Positions 591-39,537 of a stretch of DNA of 64,000 bases are shown piece by piece. Position numbers and translations under genes: made by a program. The notes beneath the pieces were generated by a model, which did not search any database, was not told where the DNA came from, and saw nothing but the letters and a program-made list of their open reading frames with translations. This DNA comes from Parvularculales bacterium (GTDB lineage: Bacteria > Pseudomonadota > Alphaproteobacteria > JAPOUT01 > JBAJNM01): positions 86,847-150,846 of the forward strand of contig JBAJNM010000001.1 of assembly GCA_036881865.1 (NCBI GenBank), in the 5' to 3' direction. Position 1 is the first letter of the stretch. Each line of letters begins with the position of its first letter.

Positions 591-722
591 CTAAGAATGA
601 TAAAAGTTCCGGCTATTTGTGCTATAAATCAATAGGTTAGTAAATTAGCTCCTGCTCATTCGACCCGCTCCCACTTTACAACGGTTTTTTGGGGGGACTT
701 AAGTATATAATTCCTTAAGATT
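591..722. repeat. ~130-bp repeat element copy A (TTAAGAAT..TTCCGGC..CAACGGYTTTTTGGG..AAGTATATAATT)
   Basis: About 75% identical over ~125 bp to 5380-5510. It contains the 12-mer AAGTATATAATT at 700-711. Confidence 0.6.
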
Positions 723-2765: not shown

Positions 2766-5294
2766 ATGAAACTGGATTTTGCGACAACGTCGATGCTGGC
2801 CAATATGGCGCTCAATGAAGTGCCACCGCTGAATACGCTGAGCGCCGATGAGGCGCGGCTGGTTTTTGCTGAGATTTACCGTTCTATGCCACCAGGGCCT
2901 GAAAGCGTCAGTAGCGAAGACATTTCCATTGTCGTTGAGGGCGGCGAAATTCGCGGCCGTATTTTGCGCCCGGCCGATGAAGCGCAAGCCGTAATGATTT
3001 ACTATCATGGCGGCGGCTGGGTGATCGGTAATATTGACGATTATGATTTGGTCGGTCGTCATCTAGCCGAAAAAAACAACGCCATTGTGGTGATGATCGA
3101 TTACCGAAAAAGCCCGGAGCACAAATATCCGGTGCCGATGCGGGATTGCTATGCGGCCTTGAATTGGGTGGAAGATAACCGCACAAAAATCGGTGCTGAC
3201 AATCTGCCGCTGATTGTGGCCGGCGATAGCGCGGGCGGCAATTTATCGGCCGTCATGGCGCAAAAAACCGCCGCTGAAAATGGCCCGAAAATCGACTTGC
3301 AGCTATTGATTTATCCGGTGACGGATGGGCGGATGCAAACCGACAGCTTTACCCATGAGGATAAACAACTGTTCCTGACGGCTGAGTTGATGAGCCATTT
3401 CTGGGATCAATATGCCGATGAAAAACAACGTCTGGAGCCCGAAGCCTCGCCCCTCTTGGCGGGTAATCTGGCGGATGTCGCACCGGCTATTGTGCTGACG
3501 GCAGAGTTCGACATTCTGGTTGATGAAGGCAAAGCCTATGCCGATAAGCTGGATGAAGCTGGTAGGCTAGTTGCTTACAAATGTTTTGAAAGGCAAATGC
3601 ATGGCTTTTTCGCCATGCCGGATGCGCTACCGGTCGGCTTTGAGGCGATGGATTGGGCAACCCACGAAATCGCACGTCATATGGCACCGGTCGAGATGGT
3701 TGATGCGGTGGTGGTCGGAGCCGGCTTTTCCGGTATGTATCAATTGCACAAACTGCGCGAAATGGGCTTGTCAGTGAAAGTGTTTGAGGCAGGCGAAGAT
3801 GTTGGCGGCACCTGGTACTGGAACTGCTATCCCGGCGCCCGGGTTGATATTGAAAGCATGGCTTACTCTTTTTCTTTTTCGAAAGAGCTGGAACAGGACT
3901 GGGTGTGGTCGGAAAAATATTCGCCGCAACCCGAGTTACTGCGCTATGCACAACATGTCGCCGACCGGTTTGACTTAAAGCGTGATATTTCTTTCAACAT
4001 GCGTGTCACCAGCGCACATTTTGACGATGACAATAATGAATGGCTGGTCACTACTGAGTGCGGCAAGCGGGTGCGGGCACGCTTTTTAGTGATGGCCTCT
4101 GGCGTTTTATCAGCTGCCAAAACGCCCGATATTGCCGGTCGTGACAGATTTAAAGGCGAGACCTATAGAACCGGCCTGTGGCCGAAAGAAGGGGTAGATT
4201 TTACCGGCAAGCGTGTGGCCGTAATCGGCACTGGTTCGTCAGCCGTGCAGTCTATCCCGCTGATTGCCGAAGAAGCGGAAGAACTGGTGGTTTATCAGCG
4301 CACCGCTGCCTATTCGACACCGGCGCATAACCGACCTTTGATCAATTCCGAGATTGATACGATGAAGACTAATTATGATGCTTACCGGCAAGAGCAGCGC
4401 CGGACCCCGGCCGGTATTGTCAATCCGGAGCGCATGCCGGAGCGTACCATGGACGTGCCGGAAGAAGAACGTCGGCGGCGCTTTGAGCAAGCCTGGGATG
4501 GCGGGCTGCTAACCGGTCTATCGTCCACCTTCTCCGATATACTGGTTAATGAAGAGGCCAATAATGAAGTGTCGGAGTTTATCGGCGACCGCATTCGCGC
4601 GACCGTGAAAGACAAACAAACGGCGGAGGATTTGACGCCGAAAGCCTATCCTTACGGCACCAAGCGACCCTGTATCGATACGAATTATTACGAGACCTAT
4701 AATCGCGACAATGTCTCTCTGGTTAATTTGCAGCGCACGCCGATTGAGATGTTTACCGAAACGGGCATCAAAACCAGCGATGGATTGCGCGAATTTGATG
4801 CAATTGTTTATGCCACCGGTTTTGACGCCATGACCGGTGCGCTGCTACAGGTCGATATTCGTGGTCGCGGTGGGAGGCGTCTGGTTGATGCGTGGATTAA
4901 CGGGCCACGCTCTTACCTAGGTATTGCCATTCACGGCTTCCCCAATCTGTTCACCATTACCGGCCCATCAAGCCCGTCTGTGCTGTCTAATATGCTGGTA
5001 TCGATTGAGCAGCATGTCAATTGGGTGACCGATTGCATTGGCTGGATGCGCGAAAACGGCAAGACGGCGATTGAGCCGAGCGATGCGGCCGAGTGCGAAT
5101 GGGCAGAACACACTGCGCACCTCGCCAGTATGACCTTATTCCCGAAAGCCGATAGCTGGTATATGGGGGCCAATATGCCGGGCAAACCGCGTATGTTCCT
5201 TGCCTATGTCGGTGGTGTCGGCGCCTATCGGATGATATGCGATCAGGTTGCCGCCAATAATTATTACGGCTGTGAGTTTACACCTAAGGATTAG
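2766..5294 (+). CDS. Fusion protein: N-terminal alpha/beta-hydrolase (HSL-type esterase/lipase) + C-terminal Baeyer-Villiger (flavin-containing) monooxygenase
   Basis: The N-terminal half has YYHGGGWVIGN (HGGG oxyanion motif) and GDSAGGN (GxSxG). The C-terminal half has FAD GxGxxG (VVVGAGFSG), a BVMO fingerprint-like FKGETYRTGLWP, and NADP GxGxxA/G (VIGTGSSA). It is a single uninterrupted 842-aa ORF. Confidence 0.8.
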   Translation: MKLDFATTSMLANMALNEVPPLNTLSADEARLVFAEIYRSMPPGPESVSSEDISIVVEGGEIRGRILRPADEAQAVMIYYHGGGWVIGNIDDYDLVGRHLAEKNNAIVVMIDYRKSPEHKYPVPMRDCYAALNWVEDNRTKIGADNLPLIVAGDSAGGNLSAVMAQKTAAENGPKIDLQLLIYPVTDGRMQTDSFTHEDKQLFLTAELMSHFWDQYADEKQRLEPEASPLLAGNLADVAPAIVLTAEFDILVDEGKAYADKLDEAGRLVAYKCFERQMHGFFAMPDALPVGFEAMDWATHEIARHMAPVEMVDAVVVGAGFSGMYQLHKLREMGLSVKVFEAGEDVGGTWYWNCYPGARVDIESMAYSFSFSKELEQDWVWSEKYSPQPELLRYAQHVADRFDLKRDISFNMRVTSAHFDDDNNEWLVTTECGKRVRARFLVMASGVLSAAKTPDIAGRDRFKGETYRTGLWPKEGVDFTGKRVAVIGTGSSAVQSIPLIAEEAEELVVYQRTAAYSTPAHNRPLINSEIDTMKTNYDAYRQEQRRTPAGIVNPERMPERTMDVPEEERRRRFEQAWDGGLLTGLSSTFSDILVNEEANNEVSEFIGDRIRATVKDKQTAEDLTPKAYPYGTKRPCIDTNYYETYNRDNVSLVNLQRTPIEMFTETGIKTSDGLREFDAIVYATGFDAMTGALLQVDIRGRGGRRLVDAWINGPRSYLGIAIHGFPNLFTITGPSSPSVLSNMLVSIEQHVNWVTDCIGWMRENGKTAIEPSDAAECEWAEHTAHLASMTLFPKADSWYMGANMPGKPRMFLAYVGGVGAYRMICDQVAANNYYGCEFTPKD

Positions 5295-5404
5295 AATCTG
5301 GCACACCATATTCACGAAACGTTACTATTAAGAATTAGAATTTGGCACAGCATCCGGTTTTATCTGGGTCTTTTTGCGCATTAAGAATTAGAAAATTTCC
5401 GGCC
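5289..5404. repeat. Three TTAGAAT-type repeat units (5289-5307, 5327-5351, 5380-5404) forming the left end of the mini-island
   Basis: Units are GGATTAGAATCTGGCACACC / ATTAAGAATTAGAATTTGGCACAGC / ATTAAGAATTAGAAAATTTCCGGCC. Their reverse complements recur at 7850-7907. Confidence 0.6.
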
Positions 5405-5510
5405 ATTTGTTATATAAACCAATAAGTTAGCTAATTAGCCCTTGGTTGTTTGGCACGTTTCCGTTTTGCAACGGCTTTTTGGGAAATTATATACTTGAGG
5501 CCTAATTTTC
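5380..5510. repeat. ~130-bp repeat element copy B
   Basis: Aligns with 591-722. It contains the reverse complement of AAGTATATAATT at 5486-5497. Confidence 0.6.
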
Positions 5511-5988
5511 TTGGAGAACATTATATACACTACTAGGTGCTCATTTTGACGGCTATACCAGCGAGGGGCTGTTGAAAGCAAGCCCTACTTCATGAAGCCA
5601 CTACGATTTCTTCTTCAAGATCTATAGTCGACCTTTGCCGAGAACGGCTATAACCTCAACATTCTGTGCGCCGTCGATACCTTTGATGAAGAGGAAGAAA
5701 TAGATCTCGCCGAGGTACGGGCCGAAATCTGCGCCTGCCTGCGCGACCATCGGAAAAGGTCTATGGGTGTGATGAATCCACGCATCTTCAGCGATAGGAG
5801 GCAGAACGCCCAAAATTTGTGTCAACCATGAGAATCATCACAAGTTTCGCCGTTTTTTTATGCCAATACCATCAACACATACAAAAATTGTGCCAATCAA
5901 AATAATTGTCACAAATTTTGCCATTTTTTGTTACAATGATCGTCAATAGACACAAGTTTGACTCAATTTTGTTACAGAGAGAAAAGCA

Positions 5989-7098
5989 ATGAACACGTCG
6001 TACGCACAACAGTTAAAAGCTCTGCCACCGCAGGTTAACCTTGAAACGGTGGAGGTTTACAAGGCGCTGGCGGCGGCAAATCGAGCTTTGGGGGAGTTGA
6101 AAGGCAAGGCTTTGACCCTCCCCAATCAGAACATTCTAATTGATACGCTGTTCTTGCAGGAAGCGCTGGCCAGCTCCGAGATTGAAAATATAGTAACTAC
6201 CCAAGACGAAGTATTTCGGGCGGACCTATTCGCTGATACAGGCCCCGTGGAAGCCAAAGAGGTCACCCGCTACCGTGATGCCATGAAACTAGGTTATAAC
6301 TCATGGTGCGAAAACGGTTTTATCAGCGAGAACATGTTGATTGAGATGTTTCGCATCCTCAAACAGCGCAATGACGGATATCGCACAACGCCCGGCACGG
6401 TGCTACGCAATGCGCGGGGGGAAACGGTCTATACGCCGCCGCAAGATGCACAAGATATTGTGCGGCTGATGCGCGATTTGGAAGCCTTCATTAACGCAGA
6501 ACCGGACGATCTGGACCCGCTCATCCGCATGGCGCTCATCCATCATCAATTTGAAAGTATACACCCCTTCCCAGACGGTAACGGACGGGTAGGGCGGATG
6601 CTGAATGTGTTGTATCTGACCCACGCAGGTTTGCTGGATGCGCCCATTTTATATTTAAGCCGCGCCATTAACCACACCAAACCCGATTACTACCTTCTAT
6701 TGCGGGCAGTGCGCAACGAAGGCGTATGGCAAGAATGGGTTATCTATATGCTTGATGCAGTGACGGAAACGGCATTCTCCACCCTGCGTTTGGTGGAAGG
6801 CATACGTGATTTGATGCGCCAGACTAAGATTCGCTTGCGTGAAGAAGGACTCTACACGCAGGAATTGTTAAACAATCTGTTTCGCCATCCCTATACGCGC
6901 ATAGCTCCTGTCGCGCGAGATTTGAGGGTCCACTACAACACTGCCGCCAGCCGTCTGAAACAATTAGCCACCAAGGGCTTTGTTCAAGAGGTGAGAGAGG
7001 GGCGGAATAATTATTACATCAACGAACCTTTGGTAGCCTTGTTCGTAAGCGTATCAGGAGACGATAATCTGCAGGAGCATGATAAAAAAAGGTCCTGA
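5989..7098 (+). CDS. fic: Fic family protein (Fic/DOC; AMPylase-type), class II with intramolecular inhibitory motif
   Basis: Fic motif HPFPDGNGRVGR is present. The inhibitory [S/T]xxxE[G/N] motif (SSEIEN) lies N-terminal of the core. The C-terminus has a wHTH-like tail. Confidence 0.85.
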   Translation: MNTSYAQQLKALPPQVNLETVEVYKALAAANRALGELKGKALTLPNQNILIDTLFLQEALASSEIENIVTTQDEVFRADLFADTGPVEAKEVTRYRDAMKLGYNSWCENGFISENMLIEMFRILKQRNDGYRTTPGTVLRNARGETVYTPPQDAQDIVRLMRDLEAFINAEPDDLDPLIRMALIHHQFESIHPFPDGNGRVGRMLNVLYLTHAGLLDAPILYLSRAINHTKPDYYLLLRAVRNEGVWQEWVIYMLDAVTETAFSTLRLVEGIRDLMRQTKIRLREEGLYTQELLNNLFRHPYTRIAPVARDLRVHYNTAASRLKQLATKGFVQEVREGRNNYYINEPLVALFVSVSGDDNLQEHDKKRS

Positions 7099-7133
7099 AG
7101 ATACAAAAATATTATCTAAAAGAGGGCGACTCG

Positions 7134-7385
7134 ATGAGAAAAAACTATGCACAGGAGTATATTAATAACCTCGTATCTGAAGGCCGATATTGTGTATCAA
7201 CCGAGGGAGCGCGGGAAACTCTGGGCGTCACCACAGATACCATCAGGAATGCGCTTTTTTGGTGGTGTGTCGCTATAGCAGTATTTGAACTGGTCCTCTA
7301 TACGGGAGTTTTGGGCGGTCTGGCTTTCATTGTTGCCCCGCATATTGTCTCCTCTTTCATCCTCACTCTGCCTCAGGTATCTTGA
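7134..7385 (+). CDS. small hypothetical protein: N-terminal wHTH-like segment + C-terminal transmembrane helix
   Basis: A good RBS (AGAGGG) sits 8 nt upstream of the ATG. The C-terminal hydrophobic stretch is WWCVAIAVFELVLYTGVLGGLAFIV. The ORF is 83 aa. Confidence 0.4.
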   Translation: MRKNYAQEYINNLVSEGRYCVSTEGARETLGVTTDTIRNALFWWCVAIAVFELVLYTGVLGGLAFIVAPHIVSSFILTLPQVS

Positions 7386-7843
7386 AGCAAACGATGGCTA
7401 ACGTAGATACTTCGCACGGATATTTTGGTATTCGAATACCGAAGATTGAATTTTCTGAATGGTACGCACGGGATGATGTAAAAAACAATCCTCATAGAAA
7501 CCAACCAGGGGTTTATATTATTGCGCGATTTGTTCATAAACCAGAAGGAACGGCAGATTATAATGCGAAAGAAATACTGTGCGTTGGTGAAACGACGAGG
7601 GATATTCACACACGGTTGAAGCAGTTTTTCAGAGCAGCTAAAAACGGAAAAACAAATCACAATCCGGGTAAAAAATTTTTTCGAAAATTCTCTGGTAATC
7701 TTGACAATATTTACGTTGCTAGTTTTTCACCTGAGCTTGAGGAAGAACATTGTCTGGACCCCTTTATTCGTTACCTAGAGCGTAAGTTAATCTTGGAATA
7801 TGCCATTAAGCACGGCTCGATTCCATTTTGTAACAGTGAGTGA
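7382..7843 (+). CDS. GIY-YIG nuclease domain-like protein (start TTG 7382 or ATG 7394)
   Basis: GVYII ... ILCVGETTRDIHTRLKQFF resembles the UvrC-type GIY..YVGKAxDLRKRLxxYF block with an insertion. The downstream E..LILEY...N block is also present. Confidence 0.45.
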   Translation: MKQTMANVDTSHGYFGIRIPKIEFSEWYARDDVKNNPHRNQPGVYIIARFVHKPEGTADYNAKEILCVGETTRDIHTRLKQFFRAAKNGKTNHNPGKKFFRKFSGNLDNIYVASFSPELEEEHCLDPFIRYLERKLILEYAIKHGSIPFCNSE

Positions 7844-7849
7844 ATATGG

Positions 7850-7907
7850 ATTCTAATCCTTAATGGTAAAATTCTAGTTCTTAATAGTAAATTCTAATTC
7901 TTAGCTA
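7850..7907. repeat. Three tandem ~21-bp repeats (ATTCTAATCCTTAATGG / ATTCTAGTTCTTAATAG / ATTCTAATTCTTAGCTA) forming the right end of the island
   Basis: They are the reverse complement of the left-end units. Exact 13-mers TAAGAATTAGAAT and TAAGGATTAGAAT are shared. Confidence 0.6.
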
Positions 7908-7934: not shown

Positions 7935-8010
7935 TGGTGGAGCCGAGGGGAATCGAACCCCTGACCTCAGCATTGCGAACGCTGCGCTCTCCCAACTGAG
8001 CTACGGCCCC
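7935..8010 (-). tRNA. tRNA-Ala (anticodon CGC)
   Basis: Reverse complement is GGGGCCGTAGCTCAGTTGGGAGAGCGCAGCGTTCGCAATGCTGAGGTCAGGGGTTCGATTCCCCTCGGCTCCACCA. It folds as a cloverleaf with a G3:U70 Ala identity pair, anticodon loop TTCGCAA, and an encoded CCA. Confidence 0.9.
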
Positions 8011-8512: not shown

Positions 8513-9421
8513 ATGTCGGCGTGTATTATTGACGGCAAGAGCCGCGCTGAAACGTTGCAGAATGCTGTAACGCGTGCGGTGTCAATCATGCGCGAGGCGC
8601 ATAATGTTATTCCGGGTCTTGCGGCGGTATTGGTGGGGGATGATCCGGCTAGTCAGGTTTATGTGCGCAACAAAATACGACGTACGCAGCAAGCCGGCAT
8701 GATGTCCTTTGAAAAGCGGTTCCCTGCTAATACATCGGAGGCCATCATTATCCAAACCGTGCGTGAACTCAACAATGATTCTGCGGTTCACGGCATTTTA
8801 ACTCAGCTCCCTTTACCTGCGTCTATATCTTGGCGGCGGGTGATAGAAACCATAGCACCTGAAAAAGACGTGGATGGTCTTCATCCTTTTAATGCCGGAT
8901 TTTTAGCGGGCGGACAGGCAGCCATGATACCGTGTACCCCTTTGGGGTGTCGTATTCTTCTGCGGGATTATCTGGGAGATATGAGCGGTGCTCATGCCCT
9001 TATTATAGGCCGCTCTGTTCTTGTAGGGCGACCTTTGGCGACGTTGCTTGTGGAGGATAATTGCACCGTTACGCTCTCTCACTCCCGCACCCGTAACTTA
9101 TCGGCGTTAGCGCAGACGGCGGATATTCTTATAGCTGCTACCGGACAAGCAGAGATGGTACGTGGTGATTGGATTAAACCCGGCTCAACAATCATTGATG
9201 TAGGCATCAATAGGGTACCTGTGCCTGATGGTGAGAAGGGACGTCTTGTGGGAGACGTTGCCTTTGATGAAGCCGTCCATATCGCCGGTGCTATAACGCC
9301 GGTGCCGGGAGGCGTCGGTCCCATGACGATTGCATGTTTGTTGCGTAATACCCTTGCCGCAACTTGTAAGCAACATGATATTACTTTACCTGACACAATA
9401 GCCTCGGAGGTTTTTTTATAA
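8513..9421 (+). CDS. folD: Bifunctional methylenetetrahydrofolate dehydrogenase/cyclohydrolase
   Basis: 302 aa with FolD-like sequence (YVRNK, GRS..VG.P, PVPGGVGPMT). Confidence 0.9.
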   Translation: MSACIIDGKSRAETLQNAVTRAVSIMREAHNVIPGLAAVLVGDDPASQVYVRNKIRRTQQAGMMSFEKRFPANTSEAIIIQTVRELNNDSAVHGILTQLPLPASISWRRVIETIAPEKDVDGLHPFNAGFLAGGQAAMIPCTPLGCRILLRDYLGDMSGAHALIIGRSVLVGRPLATLLVEDNCTVTLSHSRTRNLSALAQTADILIAATGQAEMVRGDWIKPGSTIIDVGINRVPVPDGEKGRLVGDVAFDEAVHIAGAITPVPGGVGPMTIACLLRNTLAATCKQHDITLPDTIASEVFL

Positions 9422-10410
9422 TGCAGCAGCGTCAGTTTGGAAATCTTTGGCCTGTCAGTGCTCTGACATTGGGCGGTGGCGGTATTGCACAAGCATGGGG
9501 TGAGACTACCCGCGAAGAAGCTATTGCCACAACACGCCTTGCAGTGGAGCGCGGCATTACTCTGCTTGATGTAGCCCCTATGTACGGACGAGGGGAAGCG
9601 GAACGGATTGTTGGAGAGACGTTTGGGGGGCATTTGCCGAAAGGGGTGCGGATTTCCACAAAATGTTTTGTAGGTATGATAGAGCCGGACGAAGCGCGGA
9701 CACGTCTGGAGACCTCTTTGGCGCGATCTATAAAAACTATGGGTGTGGAGCAGGTAGATTTATTTTTTCTTCATTCCAACATTTGTCCTGATGGATATGT
9801 TTATGCCCGCTCTCCTGAACTTAAGCATCGTATGGCGGTTGACTGGAGTCTTTATACGGACACTATTGTGCCCACAATGGAACGTTTGGTCGAGAAGGGC
9901 ATGGCAGGAGCATGGGGCATTACGGGTGTGGGGCAGCCTGACTCTATTCAACAGGCCCTAACCTATGAGCGTGCGCCAAGTGCTGTTCAGGCCATTGCTA
10001 ATTTGATGGATAGCCCAGGGGATATGCGGCGCTACGCAGAGCCACCTGTTCCCCGCGACATTATAGCGCTGGCCGGTAAGCGAGATATCGGAGTCATGGG
10101 CATACGTATTGTGCAGGCAGGTGCGCTGACGGCTTCCTTTGACCGCGACATTCCGTCTGAATCTCTGGATTGGGCGGATTATGAGCGGGCGGCTTCTTTT
10201 AGAGCCTTATCGGAGGAGGTTGGTGAAGATCCGGCGCGTCTGGCTACCCGGTATGCTCTTTCCATGGATGGCGTAGATACGGTGGTTTTAGGTGTTAAAA
10301 ACCGGCAAGAGTTGGAAGATGCCCTCGCTGTTGAGGCTCAAGGGCCGCTGGATGCGTCTCTTATAGCACGGATAGATGCGCTGGGCCTGAACACTCCTGT
10401 GGCGGTTTAA
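9421..10410 (+). CDS. Aldo/keto reductase family oxidoreductase
   Basis: 329 aa. The N-terminus has GxxxxxLxLGxxxxG, and D..MYG..E is present. Its start overlaps the folD stop. Confidence 0.75.
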   Translation: MQQRQFGNLWPVSALTLGGGGIAQAWGETTREEAIATTRLAVERGITLLDVAPMYGRGEAERIVGETFGGHLPKGVRISTKCFVGMIEPDEARTRLETSLARSIKTMGVEQVDLFFLHSNICPDGYVYARSPELKHRMAVDWSLYTDTIVPTMERLVEKGMAGAWGITGVGQPDSIQQALTYERAPSAVQAIANLMDSPGDMRRYAEPPVPRDIIALAGKRDIGVMGIRIVQAGALTASFDRDIPSESLDWADYERAASFRALSEEVGEDPARLATRYALSMDGVDTVVLGVKNRQELEDALAVEAQGPLDASLIARIDALGLNTPVAV

Positions 10411-10571
10411 GGCAGATTGCTGACCGCCTGATCCGAACCCTGTAACGGCTCATAATCTATCCAATGCGCTCCTGCAACCAAGTGGGTGCGGAGATGCTGT
10501 TTCTCTAAACTCCCAAAGATCTGGATAACCCATTACCATTCCCCAACGTCAAAGCCTTGCAGAAACAATAC

Positions 10572-11795
10572 TTAAGGTGTCTTTCTCCGGCGAGCGGCAA
10601 GCAAGCGTAGCCGAAGAGCATTGAGTTTGATAAACCCTTCTGCATCTTTCTGGTCATAAACACTATCTTCCTCAAAGGTGGCATAATCTTCAGCATAAAG
10701 CGAGTTTGGCGATGTCCGCCCAACAACAGAAACTGACCCTTTGTAGAGTTTAACCCGAACACGTCCCGTTACCATTTCAGAGGCATAATCTATGGCTGCT
10801 TGCAACATCTCACGCTCCGGTGCAAACCAGAGACCATTATAAATCAGCTCCGCATAGCGCGGCATGAGTTCGTCTTTCAAATGCATAGCACCACCGTCTA
10901 ACGTGAGGGATTCCACCCCACGATGAGCCGCCAGCAGCACCGTTCCCCCCGGCGTTTCATAAATACCCCGCGATTTCATGCCTACAAAACGGTTCTCTAC
11001 AATATCCAACCGTCCAATACCATGCCTCCCCCCCAACTCGTTAAGGCACGTCAATAGAGCTGCCGGTCCAAGGGTGACACCATCTACCGCCACCGGGTCT
11101 CCTCTCTCAAAGTCAATTTCAATTATTGCGGGCTTATCGGGGGCGTCTTCCGGTGATACCGTGCGCTGATAAACATACGCCGGACATTCCTCTGCCGGAT
11201 TTTCCAATGCCTTACCTTCACTTGACGTATGCAGTATATTGGCATCTGTGGAAAACGGCGCTTCGCCACGTTTATCTTTTGCAATAGGAATCTGATGCTG
11301 CTCGGCAAAGGCAATAAGCCGCGCACGGGAGGTCAAAGACCACTCCCGCCATGGCGAAATAATGCGAATATCCGGATTGCAAGCATAATAGCCCAACTCA
11401 AACCGCACTTGGTCGTTCCCCTTGCCGGTAGCGCCATGGCATACGGCATCTGCGCCGGTTTCAACTGCAATCTCTATCTGACGCTGCGCAATAAGAGGCC
11501 TGGCAATAGCTGTTCCCAACAAATACGACCCCTCATAAAGAGCATTGGCCCGAAACATGGGAAACACATAATCGCGCACAAAGATATCTTGTAAATCCTC
11601 CACAAAAATATCTTTGGCCCCTAAGGCTTTGGCTTTCTCGCGGGCAGGCCTGAGCTCTTCTCCTTGCCCCAAATCAGCCGTGAATGCTACTACCTCGCAC
11701 CTATACGTCTCATGGAGCCACTTCAAAATGACCGACGTATCTAACCCTCCGGAATAGGCCAGAACGACTTTTTTTATCGGCTCGTTTTTACTCAT
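10572..11795 (-). CDS. argG: Argininosuccinate synthase
   Basis: 407 aa. The N-terminal PP-loop is AYSGGLDTS, and the rest reads as canonical ArgG. Confidence 0.95.
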
Positions 11796-11811
11796 CGCTT
11801 ATACTCTTTTA

Positions 11812-11831
11812 TTGGTAATTATATACTTTAG
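11812..11831 (-). repeat. 20-bp repeat CACTAAAGTATATAATTACC (minus orientation), 17 bp upstream of argG; contains a TATAAT-like -10
   Basis: A perfect inverted copy lies at 13546-13565. Confidence 0.7.
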
Positions 11832-11845
11832 TGAATCCATTCTGT

Positions 11846-12199
11846 TCACTTCTTACCCGCCATCGTCCGTATAACCCCCGCCACATGTTTTAAGGCCGTC
11901 GGAGTTAGTTTCGGAAGCAACAGGGCGACCCGCCACTGTTGGGGCGTCAGAGGGTTCTTCACCGTTCCGATGGCAGGCTCTAGAATGTCTCCGACCGGTA
12001 CGCCGTAAATTCCGGCAATCTTTATAAGCCGGTCCAGAGGGATGGTTCCCTTGCCATGCTCGTAATTATGGAGTTGCGAGGTTCCTATACCCAGTTTTCC
12101 CACCACCTGACTCAATGTCAGGTCAAGAGCCTCCCGGTGCTCCTGGAGCAGGTGGCCGATCTCCTTGTCAATGGCTTTTTGGTTTTTCGTCTTTTTCAT
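11846..12199 (-). CDS. XRE-family helix-turn-helix transcriptional regulator
   Basis: 117 aa. The HTH segment is LSQVVGKLGIGTSQLHNYEHGKGTIPLDRLIKIAGIYGVPVGDIL. Confidence 0.7.
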   Translation of the reverse strand: MKKTKNQKAIDKEIGHLLQEHREALDLTLSQVVGKLGIGTSQLHNYEHGKGTIPLDRLIKIAGIYGVPVGDILEPAIGTVKNPLTPQQWRVALLLPKLTPTALKHVAGVIRTMAGKK

Positions 12200-12299
12200 C
12201 GTCGTCCAGTTTCTCCACGGGGGGAACCAGTATCACCTCGCGGGCGAATTTCGCCATGTCGTCCAGCGTCGGCAGATCGTCTTTGTCATCGTCTCTCAT
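12168..12299 (-). CDS. Possible 43-aa highly acidic small ORF overlapping the start of the XRE gene
   Basis: Minus-strand ATG at 12299 gives MRDDDKDDLPTLDDMAKFAREVILVPPVEKLDDDEKDEKPKSH. This is not in the ORF track because it is under 60 aa. Confidence 0.2.
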   Translation of the reverse strand: MRDDDKDDLPTLDDMAKFAREVILVPPVEKLDDDEKDEKPKSH

Positions 12300-12368
12300 C
12301 TGATGTTCCCTTCTTGCTCTGTTACTTTTGAGCAAACTATTACATTATTAGAAACCTCAATCTATGTC

Positions 12369-12809
12369 TCAATGATACTGGGATTCTTGAAGCAACCAGT
12401 AGACTTCGGTGTCTTTAAGATCTTCATTGTCCTGTGCCCGCTCAAAAGGTGTTTTTCCTTTTTTGTCCTTCGCTTGCGGATCGGCACCATTTTTCAGCAA
12501 AGATTCCAATACCTCTGGGTGTTTGCTCCCTGTTTCCGCTACATGAAGAGGCGTTAAACCACCCTCAGAACGGGCCTCTATATCTGCACCATGTTCCAGT
12601 AGCAGTTTTACCACCGCTGGTGTTTCGCTGTAGCCTGTCGCAAAATGCAAAGGCGTAGCACCACCCTCAAGAGCAGCCTCTACATCGACCACGGTGGCTG
12701 TCTTCCAAAATGTGTCACTTAGTAACACATTATCCTCTTGTGCATGAAGTGTAACTGGTGCGTAGACCAGTAAAAACTGTACGCAAAGGAAAGCGGTTAT
12801 TGGTTTCAT
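12369..12809 (-). CDS. Secreted ankyrin-repeat protein (paralog A)
   Basis: Signal peptide, the family N-motif NVLLSDTFWKTATVVDVEAAL, TPLH ankyrin repeats, and a C-terminal ..LLQESQYH. Confidence 0.8.
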   Translation of the reverse strand: MKPITAFLCVQFLLVYAPVTLHAQEDNVLLSDTFWKTATVVDVEAALEGGATPLHFATGYSETPAVVKLLLEHGADIEARSEGGLTPLHVAETGSKHPEVLESLLKNGADPQAKDKKGKTPFERAQDNEDLKDTEVYWLLQESQYH

Positions 12810-12860
12810 GTTATTCCCGAACGCCAGTTATTTTATCATTTTCACAATAGCTCAAAAATA

Positions 12861-13358
12861 CTAATATCCTACAACTCCAAGAATTACATCAAAGTCCAAC
12901 AACTGTTTATAACGTTGCAATTCCTTGACTACATCTTTCTGAGTTACAAGGCTAAATCCAGCAACTTTGCCTAATGTTTCATTTGAAATTGCAAAAGCCG
13001 CCGGTATACCAACAGATTTCGCTAATTCTCTGAATTCCTTTTTACATCTTTTAGTTAGAGTGCTTGTCTGCAAATCCGAAACATCTTTACCTAGGGCCCC
13101 CATGAGGGTTTTATCAACAGGGGTTATCACCCCTTTAATTTCTGGGTGTTGTGCAAAAGCCAGAACAAACCATTTCATCAACGAGTTTTTTTCTTGCTCG
13201 TTAATAGAATGAAATATGCAGGAAGATAGCTTTTCGGTAGGTGTTTGTGAATATGCAGGAGAGTTTGATAGCAACAACGTGCTTAATAGAAATAATGAGA
13301 TAAAAACGGCTTCTATCGTTGTTTTGTTTTTAATCATGAATATTTTTCCTCTTCTCAT
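12861..13358 (-). CDS. Hypothetical secreted protein (signal peptide), AT-rich gene
   Basis: 165 aa with an N-terminal hydrophobic leader (AVFISLFLLSTLLLS) and no recognisable domain. Its composition is foreign-looking. Confidence 0.45.
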   Translation of the reverse strand: MRRGKIFMIKNKTTIEAVFISLFLLSTLLLSNSPAYSQTPTEKLSSCIFHSINEQEKNSLMKWFVLAFAQHPEIKGVITPVDKTLMGALGKDVSDLQTSTLTKRCKKEFRELAKSVGIPAAFAISNETLGKVAGFSLVTQKDVVKELQRYKQLLDFDVILGVVGY

Positions 13359-13545
13359 TGTGGGACGTTTATGCTGATTGTTCGCCAGAGGCGATTAAAT
13401 TTCCTTCAAAGTAGCAACTCTCCCACGGAAGTTTACTCATGTAAGATGCTCCTTAGAGAAATAACATGATTGAAGCATACTGCGATTACCAATACTCAAA
13501 ACCGGTAAAAACGGGGTGAAGCAAGGTTTATTACGGTTTGGTCAC

Positions 13546-13565
13546 TAAAGTATATAATTACCCTT
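13546..13565 (+). repeat. 20-bp repeat CACTAAAGTATATAATTACC (plus orientation), ~130 bp upstream of the CitE-like gene
   Basis: A perfect inverted copy of 11812-11831. Confidence 0.7.
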
Positions 13566-13697
13566 TTATTACTCTGTGTACTTTTGCCACTATAGGTAAA
13601 AGCCCACTTAGCGCAAGGTGGGGAACAACCCCGCTCTTGCGGCTTGCCTACGGACTTTATAAGGTGCAAGGAAACGGCATATTAGCAAGGAGATTTT

Positions 13698-14588
13698 ATG
13701 TCAGATCACCGTCCACGCCGGAGTGTGCTTTATATGCCAGGGGCCAACGAAAGAGCGCTAGACAAGGCAAGAAGCTTGCCGGCGGATGCGCTCATTCTTG
13801 ATTTAGAGGATGCCGTAGCCCCTGATGCTAAGGAAGCTGCCAGAAATCAGGTAGCCGCAACTGTCCGTCAGGGGGGCTATGGAGCACGGGAGGTGGTCAT
13901 TCGCATTAACGGATCTGATACTCCGTGGGGAGCGGCGGATATGGAGATGGCTGTCTCTGTAAGGCCCGATGCTATTTTAGTGCCAAAAATTAACACCCCC
14001 GAAAATATCAGACGTACAAGCGATGCCATGACGCAAGTCGGTGCAGAGACCGACTTGCCACTTTGGGTTATGATGGAAACCCCCCGCGCCATGCTAAACG
14101 CCGCGGCCATTGCCCATGAAGCCGAAAGCAAAAATGCGCGACTTTCCGTGTTCGTTATGGGAACCAATGATTTGGTAAAAGAAATAGGGGCCACCCATAC
14201 GCCGGAGCGCACATCGGTTTTAGGGGCTTTGTCTCATTGCCTGCTGGCAGCACGAACTTCTGGTCTTTGCATTTTGGATGGTGTCTACAATGATATTAAG
14301 GATGAAGCAGGATTTGAGGCAGTTTGTCAGCAAGGAGCTGATATGGGGTTTGATGGCAAGACATTAATTCACCCAAGCCAGATCGTCACATGCAACCGCA
14401 TTTTTTCACCCGATGAACAAGAAGTTTCCGAAGCGCGCGCTATACTGGCAGCTTTTGATAAACCGGAAAACGCAGGCAAGGGTGTGCTGAGTGTTGACGG
14501 ACGTATGGTAGAATTGCTCCACGCTGACATGGCACGACGCATTGTTGCTATTGCCGATACCATCGCTGCTCTTGAAGGAGAGAGCTAA
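13698..14588 (+). CDS. HpcH/HpaI-CitE family protein (malyl-CoA lyase / malyl-CoA thioesterase-like)
   Basis: 296 aa citrate-lyase beta-like protein (LEDAV, MMETP, GTNDL motifs). It is adjacent to a mesaconyl-CoA hydratase-like gene, as in mcl2-mch arrangements. Confidence 0.7.
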   Translation: MSDHRPRRSVLYMPGANERALDKARSLPADALILDLEDAVAPDAKEAARNQVAATVRQGGYGAREVVIRINGSDTPWGAADMEMAVSVRPDAILVPKINTPENIRRTSDAMTQVGAETDLPLWVMMETPRAMLNAAAIAHEAESKNARLSVFVMGTNDLVKEIGATHTPERTSVLGALSHCLLAARTSGLCILDGVYNDIKDEAGFEAVCQQGADMGFDGKTLIHPSQIVTCNRIFSPDEQEVSEARAILAAFDKPENAGKGVLSVDGRMVELLHADMARRIVAIADTIAALEGES

Positions 14589-14591
14589 CTC

Positions 14592-15650
14592 ATGACTGTA
14601 GAAAGCACTGTAGAGAACAAGGGCAATTTTTTTGAAGATTTTTCTGTGGGTCAGGAAATTATTCATGCCACGCCGCGCACCCTAACCACGGGAGATGCTG
14701 CTCTTTATATGGCGCTTTTTGGATCACGTTTTGCGCTACAGTCATCAGATTTTTTTGCACAATCCCTTGGCTTTTCCGTCTCCCCTTTAGATGATTTGTT
14801 AATCTTTCATGTGGTGTTTGGCAAAAGCGTGCCGGATGTTTCTCTTAATGCTGTAGCCAATCTGGGTTATGCGGGGGGGCGTTTTTTAACGCCTGTTTTT
14901 CCCGGTAATACGCTTACCGCCCGTTCTACGGTTATTGGCTTGAGGGAAAACACAAATGGCAAGACGGGCATCGTTTATGTGAATACCACAGGAACAAATC
15001 AGCACGGCGAAGTTGTGTTGGATTATGCACGCTGGGTGATGGTAGCCAAGCGCAATCCTGACACCCCTGCTCCTGAGCCGGTCATCCCCACCCTGCCGGC
15101 TGCGGTGGCGGCCTCAGACTTACGTGCGCCGGAAGGCATTGATTACAAGCGCCTTGACGCCAGCGCCTCCGGGAGCACACAATTGTGGGATGACTTTGAG
15201 GCAGGCATGAAGTTTGACCATCGGGATGGCGTTACGGTGGAAGAGGCAGAGCATATGTTGGCGACCCGGCTTTATCAAAATACGGCCCGGGTTCATTTTG
15301 ATGGGTTTACTCAGAAGGATAGCCGGTTTGGTCGCCGTTTGATTTATGGTGGCCATGTGATTTCTTTGGCACGGGCTTTGAGTTTTAATGGTCTATCTAA
15401 CGGGTTTCACATCGCTGCTATTAACGCAGGGCGTCATGTAGCACCCTTGTTTGCAGGCGATACGGTATTTGCCTGGAGCGAAATAGTTGATAAGGCGCCT
15501 CTTGAATGCCGCGCTGATATTGGGGCTTTGCGAGTGTGCACCAGAGCTACAAAAAACCGGCTTTGTGCTAACTATCCGGGTGCACGGGACGACGACACGG
15601 ATGGTCTCATTCTGGATTTTGACTATTGGCTCCTGATGCCGCGGCGCTGA
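14592..15650 (+). CDS. MaoC-like double hot-dog dehydratase (mesaconyl-CoA hydratase-like)
   Basis: 352 aa. Its size and N-terminus (FEDFSVGQ..H.TPRT.T.GDAALY) fit the Mch family. Confidence 0.65.
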   Translation: MTVESTVENKGNFFEDFSVGQEIIHATPRTLTTGDAALYMALFGSRFALQSSDFFAQSLGFSVSPLDDLLIFHVVFGKSVPDVSLNAVANLGYAGGRFLTPVFPGNTLTARSTVIGLRENTNGKTGIVYVNTTGTNQHGEVVLDYARWVMVAKRNPDTPAPEPVIPTLPAAVAASDLRAPEGIDYKRLDASASGSTQLWDDFEAGMKFDHRDGVTVEEAEHMLATRLYQNTARVHFDGFTQKDSRFGRRLIYGGHVISLARALSFNGLSNGFHIAAINAGRHVAPLFAGDTVFAWSEIVDKAPLECRADIGALRVCTRATKNRLCANYPGARDDDTDGLILDFDYWLLMPRR

Positions 15651-32564: not shown

Positions 32565-33853
32565 TTTTGTTTCCTTTCAATAGACGCTCCACAGCGTCCC
32601 AGTTTTTCTTCCAGACGTTCAAAGCCACGGTCCAGATGATAAACCTCATTGATAATCGTTTCACCCTTTGCTGCCAATCCTGCAATTACAAGACACACGG
32701 AGGCCCGCAAATCTGTTGCAACAACCGGTGCACCAGTTAGGTATTCTACCCCCCGAACGCGGGCCGTCTCTCCCTGTAGAGAAATATCCGCACCTAACCG
32801 GATGAGTTCTTGAACATGCATAAAGCGATTTTCAAAAATGGTCTCCGTAATCTCAGAGATCCCGGAAGCACATGTCATCAACGCCATAAATTGTGCCTGA
32901 AGATCTGTTGGAAAGCCGGGCCATGGTGCGGTTTGCACATTGACCCCCTGCAAGGACGTATCAGGAGACCTGACGTTAAGCCCATTGGTGGTTTCTTCTA
33001 TAACCCCACCCGCAGATCTCAACAAAGCAATAGGAGCCTCTAAGGCTCCCGTTTCAACGCCTTGCAGTTCAACCTCACCCCCCGTTACAAGGGCTGCCAT
33101 GGCGTACGTACCTGCCTCAATGCGGTCCGGCGGGACTTGATGGTGTACGCCCGTAAGCGTTCTGCCTCCGCGAATAACAAGCCGGTCTTCACCGACACCC
33201 TCAATCTGTGCACCCATAGCAATAAGACAGTGGGCAAGGTCGACAACTTCAGGTTCACGTGCAGCGTTCTCTAATACTGTCTCGCCTTCCGCCAGAGTAG
33301 CGGCCATCATCAACGTATGCGTTACCCCTACCGATACCAACGGCGAGCGAAAAACCGCTCCCTTCAGACCATGAGGTGCTACCGCCTCAACATAACCACC
33401 GCTGGTGGTAATCTTCGCACCCATAGTCTCCAGTCCTTTGATGTATAAATCCACGGGCCGGTTGCCAATAGCATCTCCTCCCGGCAACGAAATTCGCGCC
33501 TTCCCACATCGGGCGAGCAAAGGCCCCAAAACCCAAAAACTTGCGCGCATTTGTGAAACAAGATCATACGGTGCCTTCAAAGACGTAATACTGTCTGCCT
33601 TCAAGCGTACCCTGCGACCCGACTGGCTGGCTACGCTGCTTTCTATCTTCACGCCGTGGTTTTCAAGTAAGCGGGTGAGTGTGGTTGTATCGGTCAGGTC
33701 CGGTACATTGTCTAACTCAACTGTACCTTCCGTTAAAAGAGAGGCAATCATCAATGGTAGCGCCGCATTTTTGGCGCCACTTATGGGAATAATTCCATGC
33801 AAGGGACTGCCGCCGGTAATCCGGATACAATCTGAAAGTGCCCCCGTCATCAA
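32561..33853 (-). CDS. murA: UDP-N-acetylglucosamine 1-carboxyvinyltransferase
   Basis: 430 aa, canonical MurA. Confidence 0.95.
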
Positions 33854-34008
33854 ATCACAGACGAGCCGGAATCCGTTCCGGCATCGCCACTCTTCTTACG
33901 GCGGGCTTGCTCCTTACGGCGACGAAGGTTTGCTCTCAACGCTTCTTCAAGCCGCTTCTTACGGGCGTCCTCCTCCGCTTTTTTACTGTTTATGTCGTTA
34001 TCGCTCAT
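33850..34008 (-). CDS. Small basic protein (DUF4169-like)
   Basis: [39 protein letters not shown]..; Lys/Arg-rich and 53 aa from the internal Met. Confidence 0.4.
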
Positions 34009-34084
34009 AGATTCAGTATATACCCCCATACTTGCCCGAACATGGTTTTTTCTCGTATGGTCACATTTCAGCGTCACTAATAAG

Positions 34085-34159
<75 letters not shown>

Positions 34160-34198
34160 AGTACGCACCCATATTCTTGTCACCTGGCCTTTTGATAT

Positions 34199-35032
34199 AT
34201 GACCTCAACCATTCCCCTTAAAACATACCATCATCAGGGGGCTAAAATTATCGTCGGTCTTGATCCTTCTGAGAAGATTCTGACCAGCTGGGGGTTGCCT
34301 GTTTCGGCAAATGGCCTTGAGATTTTTTGCGCCCAGTGCGTGGAGGCTCTTACTCTGGTCCCCGCGATTGTAAAATTCCAGGCCGCTTTTTTTGAGCGTT
34401 TTGGCAGTCAGGGCGTACACCATCTTGAGACAGCGACCCGCCAGTTTAGAGATAGCGGTATTCCTGTCATTCTAGATGCCAAACGGGGTGATATAGGCTC
34501 AACCGTAGAGGCTTACGCCAACGCTTATATCGGTAATGCCGACTTTCCTTTATCAGGGTTAACAGTCAACCCCTATCTTGGTTTTGATGCCCTTAAGCCT
34601 TTTTTTGAACGGGCACTGGCACATGAGTTTACTCTTTTTGTTGTAGCACGCTCCTCCAACCCTGAAGGGGATCTCCTGCAAACGGCGGTGACAAATAACG
34701 GCGAGAGTGTGGCTGCTCATATCTGCGATAGTATCGCAGCCCTCAATGAGGCCTACGGAGCCCCTATTGCCGGAGCCGTTTTGGGAGCCACCCAACCACA
34801 AACCTTTGCGGATTTGGCACGGCGCTTGGATGGTGCACCTATTCTGGCACCGGGCATTGGTGCACAAGGGGCCACTCTTAAAGAATTGCAGGAGATGGCA
34901 GGCTCTTATTACCGGCAGACAATTCCGGCGGCTTCCCGCGCTATTCTGAAACATGGTGATACAGCCCAAAACATGGCCCGCGCTATTGACGCTATGAGTG
35001 CGGAAGACAGAAATTTGCGCACTTCCTCATGA
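34199..35032 (+). CDS. pyrF: Orotidine 5'-phosphate decarboxylase (type 2)
   Basis: 277 aa; DAKRGDIGST. Confidence 0.85.
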   Translation: MTSTIPLKTYHHQGAKIIVGLDPSEKILTSWGLPVSANGLEIFCAQCVEALTLVPAIVKFQAAFFERFGSQGVHHLETATRQFRDSGIPVILDAKRGDIGSTVEAYANAYIGNADFPLSGLTVNPYLGFDALKPFFERALAHEFTLFVVARSSNPEGDLLQTAVTNNGESVAAHICDSIAALNEAYGAPIAGAVLGATQPQTFADLARRLDGAPILAPGIGAQGATLKELQEMAGSYYRQTIPAASRAILKHGDTAQNMARAIDAMSAEDRNLRTSS

Positions 35033-38958: not shown

Positions 38959-39537
38959 ATGGGAACAAAAGCGAGTGTTTTTCTGGGGTGTCTGTTTTTA
39001 TTGTTTGTTCTTATATACTTCTTTCAAGTGCAAGATGATCGAGATGATAATGTGTTGCTGGATGCAATGTTTTGGCATACGGCTACGGTGGTGGATGTAG
39101 AGGCCTTTCTCAAAGGGGGAATGAATGTCAACGCTCGTGATGAGGATGGAGAAAGGTCTCTGCACGGAGCGGCAGCGTTTAACTAAATACCGGCGGTGGT
39201 GAAATTGCTACTGGACGATGGAGCAGTAGGGGCCCGTGATAAGAATGGATTTACGCCCCTGCATCATGCGGCGGCCAAAAGCGAAACACCGGCGGTGGTG
39301 GAATTACTACTGGACCATGGGGCCAATATAGAGGCCCGCAGTAAGGATGGCTTTACATCCCTGCACGGGGCTGCAACGATTAGCAAAACACCGACGGTGG
39401 CGGAAGTGTTACTGAACCGTGGTGCCGATGGAGCGGTTCAGGATAAACATGGAAAAACACCTTTTTTCTACGCCCAAGTTAATGAGGCTCTCAAAAACAC
39501 TAAAACGTATCAGTGCTTGGAAGAGGCTCAATATTGA
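38959..39537 (+). pseudogene. Secreted ankyrin-repeat protein (paralog C) interrupted by an in-frame TAA at 39184-39186
   Basis: Both ORFs (38959-39186 and 39196-39537) are in the same frame. The sequence reads ..GAAAFN*IPAVVKLLLDDGA.. The stop occupies the K/E position of the paralogs' S(K/E)TPAVVKLLL motif. Confidence 0.7.

Follow-up and report, generated by a model that had tools for sequence, protein, structure and literature searches.

Within the 64-kb stretch of DNA analysed here (the window), which comes from the metagenome-assembled genome (MAG) of a Parvularculales bacterium, the argininosuccinate synthase gene argG and a gene for a CitE-like lyase are separated by an insert with inverted repeats at its ends. 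All position numbers are positions in this window, and the features of the locus are as follows.

10572-11795, minus strand: argG, argininosuccinate synthase (Pfam Arginosuc_synth and its C-terminal domain)
11806-11813: left copy of the target-site duplication, CTTTTATT, 10 nt upstream of the argG ATG
11814-11834, plus strand: left terminal inverted repeat (TIR), GGTAATTATATACTTTAGTGA, 21 bp and perfect, fitting the GGnnATTATATACTT of ISNwi1-like IS1595 ends
11846-12199, minus strand: passenger gene 1, a 117-aa XRE/Cro-type helix-turn-helix regulator (Pfam HTH_31/HTH_3/HTH_19, E ~5e-9; PHROG transcriptional regulators)
12168-12335, minus strand: passenger open reading frame (ORF) 2, putatively coding, very acidic, 55 aa, overlapping the XRE start by 32 nt
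12369-12809, minus strand: passenger gene 3, 146 aa, with two ankyrin repeats (Pfam Ank, E = 5e-16) and a hydrophobic, signal-peptide-like N-terminus
12861-13358, minus strand: passenger gene 4, 165 aa (158 aa with the start at 13337), secreted-looking, GC 36.5%
13359-13541: 183 nt of non-coding, subterminal DNA on the inner side of the right end
13542-13562, minus strand: right TIR, the reverse complement of the left arm
13563-13570: right copy of the target-site duplication, CTTTTATT, its identity to the left copy verified
13698-14588, plus strand: HpcH/HpaI or CitE-like lyase, the flanking host gene
14592-15650: a mesaconyl-CoA-hydratase-like gene directly after the CitE-like gene

A previous reading of this DNA, made from the sequence only, had described perfect inverted repeats flanking an insert. 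The repeats are real, extend to 21 bp and lie 2-3 nt from where the sequence-only reading had placed them. Scanning the window for the 20-mer CACTAAAGTATATAATTACC with up to three mismatches allowed finds it exactly twice, at 13543-13562 on the plus strand and at 11814-11833 on the minus strand, where 100 shuffles give an expectation of zero. The perfect inverted repeat pairs 11814-11834 with 13542-13562, perfect 14-mer inverted pairs lying no more than 3 kb apart being present at only four loci of the window, this one included, and the span between the outer arm edges is 11814-13562, or 1,749 bp. The arm sequence begins GGTAATTATATACTT (in longer form GGTAATTATATACTTTAGTGACC), and its outer 18 nt are GGTAATTATATACTTTAG. 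Abutting the outer edge of each arm, in direct orientation, is the 8-mer CTTTTATT, the copies at 11806-11813 and 13563-13570 being identical; the chance of such an exact 8/8 placement is about 4^-8 = 1.5e-5. Insertion by a DDE transposase classically leaves this footprint, a perfect inverted repeat enclosed by a short and perfect direct repeat, and the 8-bp duplication that completes it is a feature absent from the sequence-only reading.

The terminal GG and the 8-bp duplication pointed us to the IS1595 family of insertion sequences (IS), given that eukaryotic Merlin elements, which are related to this family, have a conserved terminal GG (PMC8101967), and that IS1595-family elements usually have flanking duplications of 8 bp (PMC8101967). 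Using the ISNwi1 DDE domain (taken from the supplement S2 alignment of PMC8101967) as a tblastn query against plasmids, we obtained matches of 42-54% identity, the products of which belong to Pfam DDE_Tnp_IS1595 and, in four of the five tested, contain a Zn ribbon. The left ends of these plasmid elements lie 48-69 nt upstream of the transposase start, with an inverted copy downstream. The Bradyrhizobium element has GGGGATTATATACTTGAC at both ends (longer form GGGGATTATATACTTGACACC); the Pseudosulfitobacter element ends in GGCGATTGTATACTTGAC and GGCGATTGTATATTTGAC (longer, GGCGATTGTATACTTGACAAACCC and GGCGATTGTATATTTGACAAACCC) and is flanked by cAAAAAAA and AAAAAAAA; the Sulfitobacter guttiformis element ends in GGCGATTATATATTTGAC and GGCGATTGTATATTTGAC (longer, GGCGATTATATATTTGACAAACCC and GGCGATTGTATATTTGACAAACCC); and the left end of the Methylobacterium element is GGCGATTATATCCTTTAC (longer, GGCGATTATATCCTTTACGC). 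The right ends of the Methylobacterium and Phocaeicola elements were searched for and not found, and their left ends alone were used. The terminus consensus of these ISNwi1-like elements is GGnnATTATATACTT, and the window arm fits it. Over the first 18 positions the arm is identical to the plasmid-element ends at 12-15, and at 13 of 13 it matches what may be the left end of a Phocaeicola element, located upstream of the IS1595 transposase gene. Next to the right TIR, on the minus strand, the sequence GACCAAACCGTAAT resembles the subterminal GACAAACCC and AACCAACCCGTCAT of related elements. Perfect 8-bp duplications are also seen around more distant members of the family, namely ISPepr2 (AAAATAAT) and the Sulfitobacter W027 element (ACTCGAAT). 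A blastn search of the right end against plasmids gave no match, and string searches of the literature for the terminus sequence returned nothing relevant.

We also took a census of the terminus, using the outer 18 nt of the arm as the query against 185,579 GTDB representative genomes. There were 11 matches, nine of which are single occurrences that lack a partner end and are present at about chance level. The remaining two, both in Parapedobacter sp. SGR-10, belong to transposable elements of the miniature inverted-repeat type (MITEs), of 161 bp (L005, 2074-2234) and 189 bp (L009, 2212-2400), whose terminus is identical to the window arm at 18 of 18 positions. Both have an inverted partner end, a subterminal ACCAAxCCGTxAT similar to that of the right end in the window, and flanking AT-rich 8-bp duplications, TTGTTTTT/TTGTTTTT in one case and AAAAATAT/AAAAAGAT in the other. 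A scan of JGI metagenomes recovered the same Parapedobacter loci (L018, L022, L029 and L031) together with chance matches, and the 18-mer had no match in IMG/VR. These MITEs, from the phylum Bacteroidota, are non-coding, 161-189 bp long and have internal hairpins, whereas the window element is 1.75 kb long and carries four ORFs. As a family they show termini GGTAATTATATACTTTAGCAACCA... and internal hairpins CGTCATTTCGACGAAGA and TCCTCATCGAAATGACG, and to our knowledge the family has not been described.

Searching for the enzyme that such ends imply, we found no transposase, integrase or recombinase by Pfam among the four ORFs of the insert. Nor was an IS1595 homologue detected anywhere in the 64-kb window, where tblastn with nine IS1595 transposases gave noise (best E = 0.025); Rfam gave no match within or beside the element. 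The window element thus has in common with IS1595 and ISNwi1-like elements its GG-starting termini with GGnnATTATATACTT, its AT-rich 8-bp duplication and the presence of passengers between the ends, but those elements encode a DDE_Tnp_IS1595 transposase, usually with an N-terminal Zn ribbon, and neither the window element nor the 64 kb around it does. Passengers are a feature of several relatives, the whole elements measuring 2.9 kb with four extra ORFs in S. guttiformis, 1.67 kb with one in Sulfitobacter W027 and 1.87 kb in Pseudosulfitobacter, and in several the extra ORFs sit between the transposase gene and the far end. The IS1595 family is the one for which the concept of the transporter IS was proposed (Siguier, Gagnevin & Chandler 2009, as cited in PMC3129680 and PMC8101967). 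Because it has no transposase, the window element is neither an IS nor a transporter IS, but a derivative that would depend on a transposase supplied in trans. It is also distinct from a MITE (less than about 600 bp and non-coding), having 1,749 bp and four ORFs, and from a composite transposon, its arms being 21 bp long with no IS body or transposase at either end.

Mobile insertion cassettes (MICs) are defined as transposase-less relatives of an IS (PMC3129680). The closest known parallel in organisation is MIC231 of Bacillus cereus, related to IS231 of the IS4 family (De Palmenaer et al. 2004, as cited in PMC3129680), which like the window element combines IS-type inverted repeats, coding sequences unrelated to transposition, the lack of a transposase and a duplication. 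The parent family differs, being IS4 for MIC231 and IS1595 for the window element. Mobilisation of MIC231 in trans has reportedly been demonstrated, whereas that of the window element is putative. Our conclusion from this set of results, to which we assign a probability of roughly 85%, is that 11814-13562 is a non-autonomous derivative of the IS1595 family, of the ISNwi1-like type; that is, a MIC. Terminal inverted repeats of a small mobile unit had been among the possibilities raised by the sequence-only reading, and the 8-bp duplication and the homology of the termini to IS1595-family ends bear this one out. Among mobile elements it adds an example to a known kind and involves no new mechanism.

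There are several points that weigh against this conclusion. The S. guttiformis element has no duplication, and ISPepr2, a curated member of the ISNwi1 group, has another terminus, cGGAACTATCACC; since that terminus differs, the terminus type that we describe marks a subgroup and not the whole ISNwi1 group. The ISfinder end consensus of the group is 'ggnnatTAT', with an 8-bp direct repeat; those elements whose transposase is nearest to ISNwi1 (42-54% identity over the DDE domain) carry the terminus motif, and ISPepr2, which is more distant, does not. The mobility of the element is read from its footprint, and no cognate transposase was found, the source genome having been searched within the 64 kb of the window. 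A second copy of the cassette was not found by the 18-mer scans of GTDB representatives, JGI metagenomes and IMG/VR, and an empty site was likewise unseen.

The sequence of events that we envisage is as follows. An IS1595-type DDE transposase, provided from elsewhere in the genome or once encoded by the element, would have bound the GGnnATTATATACTT termini and placed the unit in the target CTTTTATT, on the upstream side of argG and 18 nt from its start codon. The duplication of CTTTTATT would then have arisen from cuts staggered by 8 bp and the repair of the resulting gaps; the reconstructed empty site reads ...GCGCTAAGTGGGCTTTTACCTATAGTGGCAAAAGTACACAGAGTAATAAAAGAGTATAAGCGATGAGT... on the minus strand. 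Given that the arms are perfect and the duplication is intact, the insertion was probably recent.

There are two possible routes by which an element lacking its transposase could have come to lie here. The first is that the cassette moved as such, with the transposase acting in trans. The second is that it arrived as a complete transporter IS and lost its transposase by deletion in place, in which case it would be an immobile relic today, without ever having been mobilised in cassette form. This second route is a variant of the conclusion above, and we regard it as a possibility to be taken seriously, though the less probable of the two. Where the transposase of the relatives starts, 48-69 nt inside one terminus with the passengers after it, the window element has 183 nt of non-coding DNA, which may be a deletion scar and which counts against movement in trans. 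On the other hand, tblastn detected no transposase remnant in the window, and the perfect termini and intact duplication that suggest a recent insertion would have left little time for a clean deletion of 1 kb. The data are compatible with both routes; we lean slightly towards mobilisation in trans, given that no remnant of a transposase was seen and that the element is filled by its passengers.

The position of the duplication also bears on a different suggestion of the sequence-only reading, that an ancestral palindrome in the argG/CitE-like intergenic region was split by foreign DNA, each arm being one half of it. The arms do face outward, and AAGTATATAATT, the 12-mer at their core, is nearly palindromic, agreeing with its reverse complement at 10 of 12 positions. 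This suggestion fails, however, because the duplicated target sits outside the arms: what was duplicated is CTTTTATT, and the sequence formed by joining the arms is not target DNA. Furthermore, the arm sequence is the terminus of mobile elements elsewhere, being found on transposase-bearing elements as well as on MITEs, which places the repeat with the insert and makes a split palindrome extremely improbable.

A further proposal is that the arms are host regulatory DNA, acting as outward sigma-70 promoters or as operators (for the enclosed XRE regulator, for example) upstream of argG, the CitE-like gene and an amidohydrolase gene. As the sequence-only reading had reported, the core occurs four times in the window (701-712 and 13548-13559 on the plus strand, 5485-5496 and 11817-11828 on the minus strand), and there is in addition a site with one mismatch at 2579; with up to one mismatch, five sites are thus observed against 0.24 expected. 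Each arm does contain an outward TATAAT, but no -35 hexamer with at least four of six matches lies at the required 16-18 nt, the best candidates by hand matching at 1-3 of six, and a promoter scan calls neither arm. As to gene starts, 18 nt separate the left arm from the argG ATG, and a further copy of the core lies ahead of the amidohydrolase gene at 776; in the direction in which the copy at 5485 reads, no gene follows. One of the chance metagenome matches to the 18-mer (L023) lies 23 nt before an ATG and is -10-like, as a promoter would be. Regulatory function would nevertheless leave unexplained both the abutting 8-bp repeat and the identity with IS1595 and MITE termini in unrelated phyla, and we consider it improbable as an account of the arms. 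If the element is a MIC, the outward TATAAT would be a by-product of the terminus sequence, and so would any activity of the arms as promoters.

For argG, the consequence of the insertion is a change of upstream neighbourhood. The edge of the element lies 18 nt upstream of the start codon (11795, minus strand), and argG is now 1.76 kb away from the original intergenic region, which by reconstruction measured about 145 nt between argG and the CitE-like gene before the insertion. Since the passenger ORFs are co-oriented with argG, and our scan found no terminator-like site on the argG strand between them and argG, read-through is the simplest way for argG to be expressed, and argG is thus probably transcribed by read-through from the cassette. 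Transcription may start in argG's own displaced promoter region (~13590-13625), where inspection by eye shows TTGCGC-N16-TATAGT (minus strand, ~13594-13621), a weak candidate promoter that would now serve both the cassette and argG. The insertion has rewired argG, in that the gene now stands behind 1.75 kb of foreign, co-oriented genes.

Given that the source is a MAG, we considered whether the insert is an assembly chimera, the more so as the contigs of an independent assembly, that of SRR27962760 in Logan, are interrupted within the left arm (last position of L001, 11828; first position of L002, 11800). Both contigs are 100% identical to the window, L001 over 8912-11828 and L002 over 11800-15214. 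L001 holds argG, the duplication and 15 nt of the left arm, while L002 runs from the left duplication and arm through the whole insert and the right junction to the CitE-like gene in one contig. With argG, the entire insert and its two junctions recovered in these two contigs, an artefact of a single assembly does not account for the structure; moreover, a perfect inverted repeat combined with a perfect 8-bp duplication is not what a chimera would produce, and we give this explanation almost no weight. The exact ArgG, CitE-like and XRE proteins were found only in the Parvularculales bacterium MAG and in these Logan contigs. No close relative of the source MAG is present in the databases, the next ArgG proteins being 79-82% identical, and for this reason an empty site could not be shown. 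The loci of those relatives have the order RlmN-argG-FolD and no CitE-like gene; FolD also lies near argG in the window (8513-9421), and the side upstream of argG is not syntenic with the relatives. A candidate variant locus (P0001/L015; GCA_044232445.1, JAZHCB012629712.1) was rejected as belonging to an unrelated organism with 72% DNA identity to the window. The exact match scored below its ArgG-like product of 563 aa, since that ORF contains argG-like sequence twice.

The composition of the insert is mosaic and partly foreign. GC content is 43.9% over the whole element against 50.4% for the window, with 36.5% in the 165-aa gene, 46.9% in the ankyrin gene and 53.7% in the XRE gene. The description 'AT-rich insert' in the sequence-only reading therefore holds for the right half, with its 165-aa gene, but not for the XRE gene, which exceeds the window in GC. 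The insert contains four minus-strand ORFs, in agreement with the title of that reading, while its text spoke of three. The stop codon of the XRE gene is 12 nt from the left TIR and the gene is co-directional with argG; a word-based search found no homologue of it besides itself. The acidic ORF, called in Logan as 43 aa (12168-12299), matches no family in Pfam, NCBIfam or PHROGs.

The ankyrin passenger has paralogues within the window. Its protein is 53-54% identical to a 309-aa ankyrin protein (26181-27110), with the non-repeat N- and C-terminal modules included, and at the DNA level the gene is 70-79% similar to the ankyrin genes at 26181-27110 and 38959-39537. As the match extends to the non-repeat modules, we conclude that this passenger belongs to a resident paralogue family. 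The three members are secreted-looking and have common N-terminal (…LLxxxFWxTxTVxDVEAxL) and C-terminal (…Y…L…xQY) modules; the number of repeats varies, with the cassette member being the shortest. In the copy at 38959-39537, probably a pseudogene, residue 75 is followed by an in-frame stop.

The 165-aa protein has a signal-peptide-like N-terminus and no Pfam match, and it belongs to an uncharacterised family of secreted-looking proteins of ~150 aa that is widespread in Proteobacteria, with 311 representatives at E <= 1e-3. The alignment of this family shows C47, W63, P72 and C105 to be invariant and H71 nearly so (an H-P motif). An AlphaFold model is all-helical, with a predicted local distance difference test (pLDDT) score of 91, and gave no fold match in the PDB. 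At two homologue loci, a conserved gene neighbourhood was not found.

With regard to what the element means, the known picture of how transposons work is unchanged. One transposition event would explain a compositionally odd four-gene insert beside a core biosynthetic gene, and the IS family could be assigned from end sequences alone. Automatic annotation would miss such an element because it has no transposase. The interest of the case lies mainly in this annotation lesson and in the possibility that, in a host-associated alphaproteobacterium, such an element carries secreted ankyrin-type genes from place to place. Host-associated bacteria typically have secreted proteins, those with ankyrin repeats among them, and if cassettes of this kind are mobile in the lineage, they would offer a simple route for shuffling them. 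A more far-reaching proposal is that the cassette is active and, mobilised in trans, spreads genes for host interaction (those for the secreted, eukaryote-like ankyrin protein and for the secreted protein of unknown function), together with its own regulator, within or between host-associated bacteria. The window terminus is closer to Bacteroidota elements (18 of 18 positions in Parapedobacter and 13 of 13 in Phocaeicola) than to the alphaproteobacterial IS1595 elements that we examined. Were the proposal true, it would mean cross-phylum traffic of the parent IS and would provide a mechanism for the expansion of ankyrin families in symbionts; we think it unlikely, and put it forward as speculation.

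The two exact copies of the core 12-mer outside the element belong to solitary motifs that resemble its termini.

701-715, minus strand: solitary terminus-like motif AGGAATTATATACTT, one mismatch to the consensus
5482-5499, plus strand: solitary terminus-like motif GGAAATTATATACTTGAG, no mismatches to GGNNATTATATACTT

No partner end was found for either at up to three mismatches. Both abut the T-rich 3' ends of repeats of ~115 nt (~585-700 and ~5375-5481; 75% identical), in opposite orientations relative to the repeat, and they may derive from further ISNwi1-type insertions into AT-rich tails, of which a truncated end is left. The ~115-nt repeats themselves end in a hairpin and a T-run, which in copy B reads CCGTTttgcAACGGCTTTTT.

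Another of the four loci with a perfect 14-mer inverted pair within 3 kb is 5277-7890, where inverted copies of a TTAAGAATTAGAA-like motif of 22 nt (three copies at 5283-5397 and two, inverted, at 7849-7890) enclose a Fic/DOC-family gene (5989-7098) and an ORF of 153 aa that matches no family. This locus may be another small islet or an operator array. Adjoining it, at 7935-8010, ARAGORN calls a tRNA-Ala(CGC) of 76 nt, whereas Rfam calls a tmRNA at 48 bits against a threshold of 47; the latter is most likely a false assignment of a tRNA-like sequence. At 33139-34411, a perfect 14-mer inverted pair spans a tRNA-Thr(GGT) gene (34086-34160).

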